From: a virus
Lineage: Duplodnaviria; Heunggongvirae; Uroviricota; Caudoviricetes
Virus record (IMG/VR): IMGVR_UViG_2698536392_000011
DNA length: 16,366 nucleotides
Reading direction: 5' to 3' (one strand)
In this document: positions 1-10,478 of the stretch, in pieces
Layout: each line of letters opens with the position of its first letter
Position numbering within the stretch: position 1 is the stretch's first letter
The notes under the pieces: generated by a model
The model's database searches: none
What the model was told of the DNA's origin: nothing
What the model saw: the letters and a program-made list of their open reading frames with translations, nothing else
Position numbers and translations under genes: made by a program

Positions 1-144
1 TATCGTTTTAATAACCGGGATGAAGCCATCTCAGTAATATGGGAATACATTGAGATTTTCTACAATCGTCAGCGTCGTCACTCTCGTCTGGGGAATAGCT
101 CCCCGGCAGCCTTCAGGGAAAAATATCATCAGATGGCTGCTTAG
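1..144 (+). CDS. IS3-family transposase (OrfB-like), C-terminal 47 codons only; 5' part lies before the window
   Basis: Frame 1 from position 1 translates to YRFNNRDEAISVIWEYIEIFYNRQRRHSRLGNSSPAAFREKYHQMAA, ending at TAG 142-144. The YNRQRRHS-LG-SP motif is the conserved C-terminus of IS3-family DDE transposases (recognised from memory, not searched). Exact IS not identified. Confidence 0.75.
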   Translation, partial: YRFNNRDEAISVIWEYIEIFYNRQRRHSRLGNSSPAAFREKYHQMAA

Positions 145-185
145 AAAAAGAACAAATGGTAGAATCCGCTATTGCCAGTACACCT
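1..185 (+). mobile_element. Right-hand end of an IS3-family insertion sequence, inserted into prophage gene P
   Basis: Transposase 3' end at 1-144. Homology of the - strand ORF to P2 gpP stops after the codons for EAL at 186-194, and the 14 residues encoded by 144-185 (RCTGNSGFYHLFFF) are unrelated to gpP, so the IS/phage junction is at about 183-186. Terminal inverted repeat and target duplication cannot be checked without the other IS end. Confidence 0.7.
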
Positions 186-689
186 CAGTGCTTCCTGTGC
201 AAAATACCAGGTCGCCCCAATCTGTCGGGATTTCAGGATCATCCTGTTACGTATCCCGGCTTCCCTGCAAAGGGTCAGGGAGTCAAACCAGCCCCACTGA
301 TGCCACTCCAGCCTGCTGATGATTTTTTCCCGCAGTGCGGCAATCTGTTCCGGCGTGAAATGATTTTTGAGTTTTTTCGCCCGGCCTTTCTTTCCTGCGG
401 CCATCACATCCGGCTGGCCATCATGCAGCTTTTTAAGCTGCCGGGTCAGCAGGTCTATTTCCTTAAAGTCACCGCCTGTTTTATTCTGTTTTTCAGTAAG
501 CTGGATGAGGCGCGCATCGATGGACTGCGTGACACGCTGCACGGGTGGCGTTTCATCCCACTGGTCACGTTTTTTCCACGCATAAATCGTGTTCGGGTTT
601 ATTCCCATCAGACGTGATATTTCTGCGGGCGGATAACCCTGCCAGTAAAGTTGCCGCGCACGCTGGCGCACAAAAGCGTCCTGAATCAT
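186..689 (-). pseudogene. P: Terminase ATPase (large) subunit gpP, N-terminal ~168 codons, truncated by the IS insertion
   Basis: ORF 141..689 (-) contains LYWQGY...ISRLMGI...AWKKRDQWD, KTGGDFKEIDLL and ILKSRQIGATWYFAQEAL, which match remembered P2 gpP N-terminal segments (LYWQGF, KTGGDFKEIDLL, ILKSRQIGATFYFAREAL). P2 gpP is roughly 590 aa; here similarity ends after about 168 aa and the frame runs into IS sequence to a stop. Confidence 0.85.
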
Positions 690-843
690 TGCTCCCCCTG
701 AGTAATTACAGGAAGATTACCCGCGCGCGAAACTGTTCTCCTTAACCCTCTGTTCTGACTGTTTTCTTACAACAAAAGCCCTTTGTATCAGCCTGTTACG
801 CTTTGCCATCATGACTGAAGAACCAGTCAGAGGGGCAAAAACT
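690..843. promoter_or_regulatory. Divergent P/O intergenic region, expected location of P2-type late promoters
   Basis: 154-bp non-coding gap between divergently oriented P (-) and O (+). In P2 this interval carries the activator-dependent late promoters. I did not find an exact TGT-N12-ACA activator site, so this is a positional call only. Confidence 0.35.
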
Positions 844-1680
844 ATGGCTAATGAAAAAAAGACATCCCGCAAAAAGTTTCGCGTGGCTGTCTCCGGATCA
901 ACTGTTGATGGCCGTGAAATCAGTCCGGTGCATCTGCGTGAAGCCGCCGAGAACTTCAACCCGGATGTTTACGCTGCCCGCGTGAACGTTGAGCACTATC
1001 TCTCGCCATGTCCGTCAAGCGAATTTTCCGCAATGGGCGATGTCACCGCACTGAGTACGGAAGACATTACGGAAGGTCCGCTGGCCGGACGTACTGCGCT
1101 GTATGCAGAAATCGAACCTACCGAACGCATGAAGCAGCTTGTCGCGGACGGCAAGAAAATCTATTCCAGTATCGAACTGCACCCGCAGTTCTCCGTTAAC
1201 GGGCGCGCCTATCTGGTCGGGCTGGCGATGACCGACACCCCGGCAAGCCTGGGCACTGAGCGCCTGAAATTCACGGCACAGCAACGTCAGGCGGTGACGA
1301 CGTTCAACAGTATCCAGGGTGAAGCACCGCTTATCTCCGAAGCCATCGAGTCTGAAATCATCGAAATGGCAGAACAACGCCAGGAAGAAGGCACCCAGTG
1401 GTTTAACCGCGTAATGGGGATTATTGGTCGTGGCCGCAAAGCGGATGACGCCAGTTTCTCTCGAATTCAGGAAGCGGTGGAAGGCGTTGCAACGTCACAG
1501 GCCGACATTATCGACCGTTTTAATGCACTGGAAACCCGCCATCAGCAGGACCGCCAGAAAATCACGTCACTGACCACAGAGCTGACAGCATTGAAGGAAA
1601 AACTGCGCACGCAGGACGGCGATCCGCAGAACCGCTTCACCGCAACGGGCGCAGCCTCCGACCAGCTGGCTGACTTCTGA
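844..1680 (+). CDS. O: Capsid scaffolding protein gpO
   Basis: ORF 811..1680; the preferred start is ATG 844 (MANEKKTSRKKFRVAVSGSTVDGREIS), preceded by GAGGGG at 828-833. Matches remembered P2 gpO (MAKKVSKFFRIGVEGDTCDGRVIS; YLVGLAMTDTPASLGTE vs YLVGLAVTDDPASLGTE). Confidence 0.9.
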   Translation: MANEKKTSRKKFRVAVSGSTVDGREISPVHLREAAENFNPDVYAARVNVEHYLSPCPSSEFSAMGDVTALSTEDITEGPLAGRTALYAEIEPTERMKQLVADGKKIYSSIELHPQFSVNGRAYLVGLAMTDTPASLGTERLKFTAQQRQAVTTFNSIQGEAPLISEAIESEIIEMAEQRQEEGTQWFNRVMGIIGRGRKADDASFSRIQEAVEGVATSQADIIDRFNALETRHQQDRQKITSLTTELTALKEKLRTQDGDPQNRFTATGAASDQLADF

Positions 1681-8654: not shown

Positions 8655-9232
8655 GCGCAGAACTCATGCGACTGCTGAGCAACATCATCCGCACCGGGAT
8701 CATCTCTGAAGTTGATGAGAAGTCCTGGCGCGTGCGCGTTCGTAGCGGCGAACTGGAAACAGGCTGGCTGCGCTGGAACACCACGCGCGCGGGAGCCTTC
8801 AATGTGTGGCTGCCGCCATCACCCGGCGAACAGGTGGTAATTGCCTGCATTGGCGGCAACCCGGAAACCGCCATGATAATTGGCAGTCTGTGGAGTGATG
8901 CCATTCCGGCACCCGGCAAAAGTCTGAAAGAAATCGCGGTCAGCGCGCCGGATGGCGCGGTGTTCCGCTACGACGCGGACGCAGGCGCACTGAGCGCCAG
9001 CGGCATGAAAACGGCCACTTTGCAGGCATCCGTCAGCGTGACACTGGACACGCCTGTCGTGGAATGCACAGACCTTCTGAGAACGGCGACGCTTGACGTC
9101 ACAAAAGGGGGAAAGATGAGCGGCAATATCACGCACAGCGGCGGCAATTTCACCTCAAACGGCATCACAGTGCATACGCATAAACACGGTGGCGTTAAAG
9201 GTGGCAGCGATTCGACAGGAGGCCCGCAGTGA
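8651..9232 (+). CDS. V: Baseplate spike / assembly protein gpV
   Basis: IIRTGIISEVD...WLRW...RAG...VGEQVVIACIGGN...TLDTPVVECT...KGGKMSGNITHSGG...SNGITVHTHKHGG matches remembered P2 gpV (MIRTGIIVETD...VGEQVLILAVGGE...TLDTPEVVCT...KGGTMRGNIEHTGG...LHTHKHPG). GTG 8651 overlaps the S stop (GTGA). Confidence 0.9.
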   Translation: MSAELMRLLSNIIRTGIISEVDEKSWRVRVRSGELETGWLRWNTTRAGAFNVWLPPSPGEQVVIACIGGNPETAMIIGSLWSDAIPAPGKSLKEIAVSAPDGAVFRYDADAGALSASGMKTATLQASVSVTLDTPVVECTDLLRTATLDVTKGGKMSGNITHSGGNFTSNGITVHTHKHGGVKGGSDSTGGPQ

Positions 9233-9579
9233 CAGCCCGCTACACAGGAATGAACCCGGACGGGACGGGAAACCTGAATGATATGGAGCACCTGAAACAG
9301 TCAGCCAGGGACATCCTGACCACCCCGCTGGCCAGCCGGGTTATGCGACGGGAATATGGCAGCCTTGTACCTGATTTGATTGACGAACCCATGAATAACA
9401 CCACGCGTCTGCAATGCATGAGTGCTGCCGTGATTGCGCTGACACGATGGGAACCCCGCATTGCCCTGGACGCCATCGACGTTGTCTGGAAAGCGGGAGG
9501 CCGCGCCGGGGTGACGCTGTCGGGCACTGTCATGCAGACCATGCAGAATGTTGAGTTAACCATCACGCTGAGGGAGTAA
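9229..9579 (+). CDS. W: Baseplate wedge protein gpW (GPW/gp25 family)
   Basis: 116 aa; MTARYTGMNPDGTG...ILTTPLASRVMRREYGSL...TRWEPRI fits the gpW/gp25 family and follows V. GTG 9229 overlaps the V stop; ATG 9250 is the alternative start. Confidence 0.85.
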   Translation: MTARYTGMNPDGTGNLNDMEHLKQSARDILTTPLASRVMRREYGSLVPDLIDEPMNNTTRLQCMSAAVIALTRWEPRIALDAIDVVWKAGGRAGVTLSGTVMQTMQNVELTITLRE

Positions 9580-9582
9580 ATC

Positions 9583-10478
9583 ATGCCTGCTGTTGACCTT
9601 TCCCAGTTACCGGAACCCGCCATCATCGCGGAGCCTGACTTTGAAGCAATTCTGGCTGACACAAAGGCCATGATGATTGCGTCCTATCCTGCCGAACAGC
9701 GTGAAGCCGTCTCCGCCGCGCTGGAGCTGGAATCGGAGCCCCTGAACGTTATCGCTCAAACCATGTCTTTTCGTGAAATGCTGTTACGCCAGCGGGTTAA
9801 CGAGGGCGCACGCGCCTGCATGTTAAGCCACGGTTCAGGGACAAACCTGGACAACCTCGCGGGCAATATGAACACAAAGCGCCTGGTTATCACTCCGGCA
9901 ACGGATACCACCGACGCGGTGATGGAGAGCGACACCTCGCTGAGACTGCGGGCGCAGCGGGCGTATGACGGCCTGAGTGTTGCTGGCCGTCAGGTGCATA
10001 CGAGTATTTTGCACGCAGCGCCAGCGGTCTGGTGCGTGATGCGCGGGCCATCAGCCCGTCTCCGGCCTGTGTGACGGTTTCCATTCTGTCCACTGAAGGC
10101 GACGGCACAGCAACGGAGGCGTTGCTTAATACCGTTCGCGCCGTTCTGAATGCAGAGGATACCCGCCCGGTGGCCGACCGCCTGAGGGTACAGAGCGCCA
10201 GCATCGTGACATGGCGGCTGAATGCAAAACTGTACTTTTATCCCGGCCCGGAATCCGAACCTATTCTGGCCGCGGCGGAATCGTCATTCAGGAAGTGGCT
10301 GGCTGAACAGGGGCTTATCGGTCAGGACGTGGCGTTGTCCGCCATTGCTGCCGCACTGCATGTGCACGGTGTGCAACGCGTGGAGATAATCGAACCCACA
10401 CAGAATATGGCCATCAGCGACATACAGGCGGCGCGCTGTGAGTCATTCACCATCAGCGAAGGTGGGCGCAATGAGTAA
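9583..10478 (+). pseudogene. J: Baseplate assembly protein gpJ, interrupted by a 1-nt frameshift near 9986-9990 (ORFs 9583..10074 and 10032..10478)
   Basis: ATG 9583 with GGGAG upstream. Frame 1 matches P2 gpJ through ...RAYDGLSVAG (P2: QAFEGLSVAG); the adjacent frame then reads GAYEYFARSASGLVRDARAISPSPACVTVSILS (P2: GAYQYHGRSADGRVADISVTSPSPACVTISVLS). A single missing base in gctggccgtcagg explains the switch. P2 gpJ is one ~302-aa protein. Confidence 0.85.

Follow-up and report, generated by a model that had tools for sequence, protein, structure and literature searches.

Because both its IS insertions and its frameshifts are inherited and are found in dozens of independent assemblies, the P88-like prophage of STEC CC119 (O165:H25/O172:H25) represents a case of ordinary prophage decay. 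Very probably, the prophage was already non-viable in the CC119 common ancestor, and further lesions were added afterwards in each sublineage. The phenomenon is of an already known kind, as decay by IS transposition and small indels is textbook behavior of prophages.

Identity and gene content of the prophage

The analyzed stretch of 16,366 nucleotides (the window) constitutes the whole draft contig LNFT01000145.1. Judging by its genes, it covers the late region, with virion and lysis functions, of a CC119 prophage that is P88-like and belongs to the P2 family. In comparison with the separately produced PacBio genome CP013029 (STEC O165:H25 strain 2012C-4227), 16,179 of 16,179 bases outside the IS600 end are the same, and all five mismatches fall inside that end (positions 1-187). 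PGAP and Pfam, applied to the identical genome region, give the P2-type order, that is, divergent Q-P and O-N-M-L, then lysis, baseplate, and fibre genes, and FI-FII-E-T-U-D-ogr. The prophage resides between yecA and the leuZ-cysT-glyW tRNA cluster; a tyrosine recombinase and an HTH repressor adjoin yecA, and the other prophage end adjoins hok and the tRNA-Leu/Cys/Gly cluster. Gene order, nucleotide similarity, and the integrase/immunity end with the integration all agree with membership in the P2 family (P88-like, Xuanwuvirus).

Phages P88, 500465-2, 520873, and P884B11 are ∼95% identical to the window over 67-69% of its length, P88 itself over 68%. P88 and related Xuanwuvirus (Peduoviridae) share the late order with the window (P / O N M L X holin endolysin LysB R S V W J I H G / U T). 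Unlike the window copy, P88 has no NanS-p-like esterase gene, which here lies between the lysis genes and R, and P88 carries an invertible fibre segment with an invertase where the window copy has an acetyltransferase. Also in contrast to P88, the copy of the window lineage is inactivated by three IS insertions and three frameshifts. The base-level reference for these lesions was the intact prophage of O55:H7 DEC5E (NZ_CP038383.1), which is 99.8% identical to the window. It has the same chromosomal site, flanks (the yecA side; the side with hok, tRNA-Leu/Cys/Gly, pgsA, and uvrC), and cargo genes as the window lineage, but contains no IS; its P, N, nanS-p, J, T, and ogr are all uninterrupted, and one internal stop is found in a small early-region ORF.

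The window contains the following features:

1-187, plus strand: right end of IS600 (IS3 family), inserted in gpP (PGAP, 'IS3-like element IS600 family transposase'; junction and terminal repeats)
188-190, no strand: 3-bp target-site duplication GTG of the IS600 in gpP (junctions compared with the uninterrupted DEC5E)
188-689, minus strand: N-terminal remnant of gpP (terminase large subunit), codons 1-167 (PGAP, 'terminase gpP N-terminus-related, incomplete')
844-1680, plus strand: gpO capsid scaffold/protease, intact (PGAP)
1704-2757, plus strand: gpN major capsid pseudogene (PGAP, 'frameshifted'; DEC5E comparison)
2803-5660, plus strand: late block, all intact, comprising M 2803-3603, L 3705-4199, X 4199-4399, holin 4402-4725, and M15 endolysin 4722-5114 (PGAP, identical sequence), as well as LysB/DUF2570 5111-5518 and LysC 5472-5660 (PGAP)
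5657-7535, plus strand: NanS-p-like sialate O-acetylesterase pseudogene (PGAP, DUF6645/nanS-p 'frameshifted'; Pfam; DEC5E comparison)
7559-9579, plus strand: tail/baseplate block, intact, comprising R 7559-8026, S 8019-8654, V 8666-9232, and W 9229-9579 (PGAP)
9583-10478, plus strand: gpJ baseplate pseudogene (PGAP, 'frameshifted'; DEC5E comparison)
10471-13657, plus strand: I-H-G block, comprising gpI 10471-11079, intact in the window strain (PGAP), tail fibre H 11076-13079, intact, with a 132-bp Phage_fiber_2 repeat (x 2.7) at 11591-11942, and fibre assembly gene G 13079-13657, intact (PGAP)
13701-14273, minus strand: hexapeptide-repeat (serine) acetyltransferase, a low-GC cargo gene
14430-14918, minus strand: gpU tail protein, intact (PGAP)
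14931-16338, minus strand: C-terminal fragment of the tape-measure gene T, which the second IS interrupts (PGAP; junction comparison)
16339-16366, plus strand: left end of the 1,310-bp IS3-family element (IS629-type) in T

IS insertions

A preliminary sequence-only reading of the window had noted one IS insertion, truncating P. Indeed, PGAP reports an incomplete P beside IS600; however, P is interrupted rather than deleted, as its C-terminal 415 codons lie beyond IS600, outside the window, and are present in the closed genome. The intact P of DEC5E comprises 583 aa with Terminase_5, Terminase_6N, and Terminase_6C. The full IS600 copy in the closed genome is 1,264 bp long, with the ends TGAGGT...ACCTCA, and the target duplications found for IS600 are GTG and CTT; its size, terminal inverted repeats, and 3-bp duplication, as well as the PGAP call ('IS3-like element IS600 family transposase, programmed frameshift'), place it in the IS600 family.

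Moreover, one insertion is an undercount. A second element, of 1,310 bp and the IS3 family, cuts T at 16339, with the target duplication GCC at 16336-16338, and a third, again IS600, lies shortly beyond the window, in the 3′ end of ogr. All three insertions are flanked by intact 3-bp target duplications. The element in T is taken to be IS629-type from its terminal repeat. This name also agrees with the published list of the major IS species of the lineage, IS2, IS600, and IS629, in CC119 genomes carrying ∼120-130 IS copies each (119-131) (PMC10132054). An additional frameshift in the N-terminal fragment of T, flagged 'frameshifted' by PGAP, was rejected: the alignment with DEC5E is gap-free over 5,196 bp, and hence the flag reflects how the IS junction was annotated.

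Single-base frameshifts

In N, the lesion is an additional A (GA to GAA) at 2188-2189, where the ancestral site, as seen in DEC5E, has a single A. This +1 frameshift yields a product of 162 native residues with a 10-residue out-of-frame tail, 172 aa in total. An indel in N had been correctly noticed from the sequence, but was assigned to the motif cacacca (2194-2200), ∼6 nt from the actual site, which had no ancestral repeat. For the other two genes, the comparison with DEC5E confirmed the proposed sites. In nanS-p, at tttt, a T has been added (TTT to TTTT, 6452-6455), causing a +1 frameshift, and the product ends after residue 266. In J, at ggccg, a C has been lost (GGCCCG to GGCCG at 9985-9989; CCC to CC, 9987-9988), and the −1 frameshift leaves a 163-aa product. 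Slippage at the T3 and C3 runs probably produced these two of the three indels.

Undoing the single-base changes restores full-length N (350 aa), the NanS-p-like protein (625 aa), and J (298 aa), and RefSeq PGAP annotation of the matching genome independently flags N, DUF6645/nanS-p, and J as 'frameshifted'. Of the complete RefSeq E. coli genomes in which this stretch is present, 4 of 913 have the mutant allele for N, 4 of 300 for nanS-p, and 2 of 533 for J, all of them CC119; the remaining genomes (909, 296, and 531, respectively) have the uninterrupted allele.

Distribution of the lesions in CC119

The N and nanS-p frameshifts are present in every clade sampled for them (A, B, C, D, G, and H). 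The frameshift in J occurs in A, B3, C1, and D1, and is absent from E1, F1, G1, and H. This distribution is nested and matches the published CC119 tree, with the branching order H, G, F, E, D, C, B/A (PMC10132054). Both the IS insertions and the frameshifts in N and nanS-p are older than the common ancestor of the lineage, and the J frameshift is later. [quoted passage not shown]

Several lesions are confined to particular sublineages. Clade H has a private nonsense mutation in gpI, W61* (G>A at 10653), found in 24 contigs; a split gpD is seen in clade H1 only; and one strain has an inversion between two inverted IS600 copies. We did not accept a gpD lesion on the basis of the short PGAP 'VgrG/Pvc8' call (266 aa), as most strains yield a 369-aa Phage_GPD with a different gene caller. 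A concentration of lesions in the late region was likewise dismissed, as it is not significant with 6-7 lesions and a late region of ∼70% of the prophage. As stable nested markers, the N and nanS-p frameshifts can serve for all CC119ss, the J frameshift for clades A-D, and gpI W61* for clade H.

The ratio of nonsynonymous to synonymous substitutions is 18:10 on the CC119 branches vs. 169:277 for the deeper divergence (Fisher p = 0.009), a baseline dominated by the divergent nanS-p allele. The nonsynonymous excess is a weak sign of relaxed constraint. The branch of the apparently intact DEC5E prophage has a similar ratio, 7:4, and nonsynonymous changes are in general overrepresented among recent polymorphisms.

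Recurrence in independent assemblies and alternative explanations

The sequence-only reading had left two options, decay fixed in the strain or an assembly with homopolymer-type errors, to be distinguished by independent sequence at the three indel sites. Public assemblies retain the indels, the exception being AP026739.2, from a different strain. The same lesions appear in PacBio, ONT+Illumina hybrid, draft, and Logan assemblies, nested in the CC119 tree as described above, a result that favors fixed decay. The DNA-level allele table covers 22 loci. The N/nanS-p indels are also seen in the DNA of closed ONT+Illumina genomes from another laboratory, AP026742, AP026746, AP026751, and AP026761 (methods in PMC10132054). 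Logan contigs are derived from SRA, and platforms are named for the PacBio, ONT+Illumina, and 454 genomes only. In NCBI and Logan, the exact 172-aa N product was found in 91 index blocks (contigs >1 Mb in 11 of them, contigs of 5-10 kb in 71), and the exact 163-aa J product in 52; the exact truncated NanS-p product also occurs in NCBI and Logan records.

It is extremely unlikely that the three indels are sequencing or assembly errors of the homopolymer type and that the IS in P is the only damage to the prophage genes. Such errors could be suspected, as no short-read polishing is reported for CP013029, a PacBio RSII/HGAP3 assembly, two of the three indels are at short homopolymers, and the nanS-p and J indels are absent from the 454-based AP026739.2. 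Against this, the same alleles are found in the draft contig of the window, four CDC PacBio genomes, at least four ONT+Illumina hybrids, several drafts, and many Logan contigs; they are neither private to one assembly or platform nor a constant outcome of one pipeline, many other CDC PacBio genomes (CP027xxx) having the wild-type allele in the same 81-82-nt context. Furthermore, the J allele is limited to a monophyletic subset sharing SNPs, the runs span just 2-4 bases, and insertions account for two of the three changes. The error explanation is already largely refuted. As a control for PacBio errors we considered a private C6 to C5 deletion in 2013C-4830 (∼5505); it proved unusable as a clean error example, because its exact 182-aa product recurs in eight other contigs. 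We regard as practically negligible the possibility that full-length N, NanS-p, and J are still made by programmed ribosomal frameshifting: both halves of each frameshifted gene remain open, and nothing further speaks for it, whereas >98% of the genomes with the same stretch have an uninterrupted ORF, so that the shift is not conserved, P, T, and ogr are disrupted by IS regardless, and no slippery heptamer was seen at the N, nanS-p, and J indel sites.

The discordant genome AP026739.2 (strain JNE072951, clade B) is closed and was sequenced by Roche 454 and Sanger. In this assembly nanS-p and J are intact, and so, probably, is N, judging from accession lists only. It retains all three IS insertions (P, T, and ogr), and over 11,436 bp the nanS-p and J indels are its only differences from the window; compared with its sister genomes, it has no other indel over 21.3 kb, and hence the assembly is not generally noisy. 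This pattern could mean that the frameshift sites are truly reversible or polymorphic, by precise reversion or micro gene conversion, and that JNE072951 really has restored N, nanS-p, and J, but we consider this very unlikely. It would take two and probably three exact reversions, all on a single terminal branch and without one accompanying SNP. Because P, T, and ogr remain interrupted by IS, nothing would select for restoring these genes. A donor copy is missing, the N, nanS-p, and J stretches being at one place per record in the four RefSeq CC119 genomes, and the runs are too short for phase variation. At the same time, homopolymers are a frequent source of ambiguity in 454 data, and the JNE072951 genome was manually finished and curated. 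Most likely, the intact alleles are a finishing edit, and this closed reference probably holds 'repaired' pseudogenes, which matters to its users. If the alleles were real, two to three reversions would have occurred on one short branch, and an unrecognised mechanism of repair or micro-conversion in prophage pseudogenes would be implied. The sequence-only reading held that decay would be contradicted if all three indels disappeared in independent data; at face value, AP026739.2 resembles this situation, as a single outlier.

Proposed history of the decay

In the decay history that we favor, IS600 would have inserted into P and the 3′ end of ogr, and the IS629-type element into T, by the time of the common ancestor; by then, single-base insertions would also have disrupted N, which encodes the major capsid protein, and the NanS-p-like esterase gene carried as cargo. 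With packaging, capsid, and tail lost, selection would have stopped protecting the remaining virion genes. The sublineages would then have gained lesions independently, namely the J −1 frameshift (A-D), the gpI nonsense mutation (H), the split gpD (one H strain), and the inversion between the two inverted IS600 copies (one strain). These later lesions were presumably neutral.

The inactivation of virion genes (P, T, and ogr by IS; N and J by frameshifts) and the vertical inheritance of the lesions across the CC119 clades characterize a defective prophage. From its gene content, virion production is predicted to be abolished and the prophage to be dead. The defective prophage pools of EHEC, e.g. 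O157:H7 Sakai, were reportedly described by Asadulghani and colleagues in 2009. Similar to the CC119 copy, EHEC defective prophages are said to be inactivated by IS, frameshifts, and deletions and yet stably inherited in an STEC lineage; those studied were reportedly mostly lambdoid, whereas the CC119 copy belongs to the P2 family. The biological importance of the finding is small; it shows that decay continues in the sublineages of an IS-rich pathogen.

The NanS-p-like esterase gene

The intact allele has the domain composition of NanS-p, with DUF1737, SASA, and DUF6645 in Pfam (the NanS/SASA esterase and the NanS-p C-terminal domain). Its residues 69-388 match NanS (NanS/YjhS, PDB 3PT5; E = 7e-124), and residues 430-622 match the NanS-p C-terminal domain (PDB 6YP6; E = 4e-31). 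In the NanS alignment, the frameshift after residue 266 falls between the GQSN serine region (∼81) and the distal HFSS histidine region (∼370), whose serine and histidine have reported catalytic roles in the NanS structure. Esterase activity on 9-O-acetyl sialic acid would thus be lost.

NanS-p is usually encoded by lambdoid prophages, often Stx prophages, where its gene lies in the late region, downstream of toxin and lysis functions. The NanS-p genes of Stx/lambdoid prophages have the same domain make-up as the intact allele, but lie downstream of stx, whereas the CC119 copy is a pseudogene located in a P2-like prophage, between LysB/LysC and gpR. This prophage should not be counted among the inducible phages or the functional nanS-p copies of these strains.

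Source Assemblies and Gene Content

The window matches positions 2,810,254-2,826,619 of NZ_CP013029.1 over its full length (100.0%). This is the genome of the STEC O165:H25 strain 2012C-4227, sequenced with PacBio RSII and assembled with HGAP3, short-read polishing not being mentioned (PMC4683243). The window does not derive from this record, but is the entire contig LNFT01000145.1 of the draft assembly GCA_001608265.1, the one contig of 16,366 bp found with an exact search for the ORF across the P/IS junction (the first 10,689 bases were compared and are equal). This contig opens within an IS600 and breaks off within an element of the IS629 type, which would be a typical outcome of short-read assembly. 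The window and CP013029 differ at five positions, all in the first 164 bases, that is, in IS600 sequence, while the other 16,179 bases are identical; the five differences probably reflect a consensus of several IS copies.

According to Pfam and to the PGAP annotation of the same region in CP013029, the genes of the window form the late region of a P2-family phage:

gpP, terminase large subunit, minus strand
O, N, M, L and X, after gpP
holin, M15 endolysin, LysB and LysC
DUF1737-SASA-DUF6645 protein (nanS-p), after the lysis genes
R, S, V, W, J, I, H and G
acetyltransferase, U and T, minus strand

The gene names assigned earlier from the sequence (P, N, and J as in P2; nanS-p) agree with this annotation and with alignments to NanS and NanS-p. 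The intact esterase allele aligns with E. coli NanS (3PT5) at residues 69-388 (E=7e-124), and with the "NanS-p" C-terminal domain (6YP6) at residues 430-622 (E=4e-31). The nearest phages are P88 and other members of Xuanwuvirus, to which 67-69% of the window aligns at ~95% identity. Unlike the window, P88 has no esterase gene between LysB and R, and hence nanS-p is cargo of this subgroup. The best comparator is the prophage of the O55:H7 strain DEC5E (NZ_CP038383.1), which occupies the same site, is 99.8% identical, and has all affected genes uninterrupted.

The window differs from P88 around the tail-fibre genes as well: the position of the acetyltransferase is taken in P88 by an invertible fibre segment together with a DNA invertase. 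The acetyltransferase gene (13701-14273, minus strand), of the hexapeptide-repeat type, is flanked by the fibre-assembly gene and gpU and has a low GC content (about 0.38-0.42), within a low-GC stretch at ~13500-14500. The H/G/acetyltransferase block is 93-95% identical to the unrelated large Escherichia phages JL22 and Ro157c2YLVW. The tail-fibre gene H contains a 132-bp tandem repeat (11591-11942, 2.7 copies, 89% identity) corresponding to the Pfam Phage_fiber_2 repeats.

The prophage is flanked by yecA on one side and by hok, a tRNA-Leu/Cys/Gly cluster, pgsA, and uvrC on the other, the hok/Gef toxin gene being located just beyond the ogr end. PGAP has set no pseudogene flags on the integrase, the repressor, and the early genes, save for one partial ORF that is also found in DEC5E. 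The early region, outside the window (5518-6796 of the fetched locus), carries ParM/StbA-like and plasmid-stability genes, which are unusual for an integrated P2-like phage.

IS Insertions and Frameshifts

The sequence-only reading had counted one IS insertion, in P. We found three IS elements, in P, T, and ogr:

1-187, end of a 1,264-bp IS600 in P, with a GTG target duplication at 188-190
16339-16366, first 28 bases of a 1,310-bp IS3-family element inside the tape-measure gene T, with a GCC duplication
outside the window, a second IS600, inverted, 100% identical to the copy in P, inserted in ogr 47 nt short of the gene's end, with a CTT duplication

P is indeed hit by an IS, but the rest of the gene is not lost, as its C-terminal 415 codons continue beyond IS600. 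The element in T is presumably of the IS629 type, judging by its terminal repeat. The assignment also draws on IS629 being named as a major IS of the lineage, the STEC clonal complex CC119 (PMC10132054). Strain JNE110611 (AP026742.1) has undergone an inversion of the segment bounded by the two identical, oppositely oriented IS600 copies (in P and ogr), which has brought the N-terminal fragment of P next to hok and the tRNA cluster.

Exactly three indels separate the window from DEC5E in a five-way alignment:

2188-2189, extra A in N (GA to GAA)
6452-6455, extra T in nanS-p (TTT to TTTT)
9987-9988, missing C in J (CCC to CC)

Reversion of the single base gives back 350 residues in N, 625 in nanS-p, and 298 in J, with a few substitutions relative to the DEC5E proteins. 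The indels in nanS-p and J had been placed exactly from the sequence. The one in N is a one-base indel, as proposed, but does not fall in cacacca (2194-2200); its true site is six bases upstream, at an ancestral single A. The change in N is the duplication of a single base, while those in nanS-p (T3 to T4) and J (C3 to C2) look like products of slippage. The genes with these lesions are already marked as pseudogenes in RefSeq.

Real Mutations or Assembly Errors

Four lines of evidence agree in supporting the indels as real mutations rather than assembly errors, the two explanations between which the sequence-only reading had left the choice while preferring the former. The window and CP013029, two separate assemblies, agree at all three indels. 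The exact 172-aa N fragment was found in 91 index blocks, of which 11 contain contigs >1 Mb and 71 contain 5-10-kb contigs, mostly from Logan (SRA runs), and the exact 163-aa J fragment in 52 index blocks. The 273-aa NanS-p fragment occurs as four SNP variants, both in closed genomes and in drafts, produced by laboratories in the US and Japan. At the DNA level, the alleles were confirmed with 41-43-nt allele strings over 22 fetched loci. Among the independent assemblies are the Japanese closed genomes AP026742, AP026746, AP026751, and AP026761, produced with Unicycler from ONT and Illumina reads. Among complete RefSeq E. coli genomes (a set in which CP027675.1 is absent), the mutant alleles are present in 4 of 913 genomes with the same 81-82-nt stretch for N, 4 of 300 for nanS-p, and 2 of 533 for J. 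All carriers belong to CC119; in the same context, the wild-type allele is found in many other PacBio assemblies from the CDC. The same alleles recur in independent assemblies, are lineage-specific, and are nested on the tree. Errors would not follow such a pattern of inheritance, which argues against the assembly-error alternative and for decay fixed in the lineage.

In the published tree of CC119, clade H branches first, then G, F, E, D, and C, with A arising from B (PMC10132054). Clades A, B, C, D, G, and H share the three IS insertions and the frameshifts in N and nanS-p. The nanS-p fragment is also present in E and F, and the N fragment in E, not F, among the accessions listed (four at most). 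Being present across clades including the earliest-branching one, these five lesions are older than the ancestor of CC119ss, all of them already lying on the lineage stem. The J frameshift was found in A1, A2, B3, C1, and D1, while E1, F1, G1, and H keep the intact CC119 allele of J, and therefore it arose after the split of E. A stop codon private to clade H interrupts gpI (W61*, window 10653) and occurs in 24 contigs. We found no discussion of the N, nanS-p, and J frameshifts in PMC10132054.

One genome is discordant. AP026739.2 (JNE072951, clade B), obtained with Roche 454, Newbler, and Sanger gap filling, equals window 4931-16366 at all bases except for TTT in nanS-p and CCC in J, the two genes being annotated at full length. 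Over 21.3 kb it shows no further indel against its sister genomes, and the IS insertions in P, T, and ogr are all retained. The fetched stretch does not include N. Among the matches listed, though, no BDQ71... accession carries the exact N fragment, and between BDQ71484 (the P fragment) and BDQ71501 (J) the numbering has space for a single CDS for N and a single one for nanS-p; on this basis, N is probably not frameshifted either. The intact alleles could be read as biology, that is, precise reversions in JNE072951. This would require two or three precise events on a terminal branch with zero accompanying SNPs, and the prophage would stay dead despite them. An edit at the finishing or curation of the 454 assembly seems far more likely.

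Probable Consequences of the Lesions

Without the large terminase, the capsid protein, and the tape measure (and, in clades A-D, the baseplate protein J), no particles would be formed. Ogr would lack its last 15 residues, and late transcription may suffer. The NanS-p fragment stops after residue 266, upstream of the conserved HFSS histidine region in the NanS alignment, and hence the NanS-p esterase of this lineage is probably inactive. Defective prophages in IS-rich EHEC lineages are well known, and this prophage is one of them. The prophages of CC119 have been described as ancestral and stably maintained (PMC10132054).

Further Variation in Relatives

Substitutions on CC119 branches, polarised by an outgroup prophage, number 18 nonsynonymous to 10 synonymous, against 169:277 in the deeper divergence (Fisher p=0.009); this fits relaxed constraint weakly, since the ratio is 7:4 on the DEC5E branch and nanS-p contributes 287 of the 446 baseline differences. 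In 2013C-3492, gpD is split. The clade H genome CP027675.1 (88-3510, PacBio) has extra breaks in the portal, tail tube, gpX, and nanS-p genes (the last by a 1-bp deletion, window 6282) that other clade H genomes do not have; these may be real further decay, or else PacBio or assembly noise.

In some drafts, Mu-like com/mom genes adjoin gpO. In GCA_049344385.1 (ABYOPZ010000032.1), they are found directly upstream of gpO in place of the P remnant, which suggests that a Mu-like phage has inserted into this prophage. Mu-like phages inside prophages of the lineage have been mentioned (PMC10132054). Residues E, D, and A are all found at nanS-p codon 40 (window 5776) among CC119 strains, possibly due to gene conversion with paralogous nanS-p copies in lambdoid prophages. 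In 2013C-4830, C5 instead of C6 at ~5500-5505, near the 3' end of lysB, fuses LysB to the frame of LysC, yielding a 182-aa product. Exactly this product was found in eight contigs (NCBI and Logan), and its cluster has many 182-aa variants; hence the fusion may be natural variation and need not be an error.
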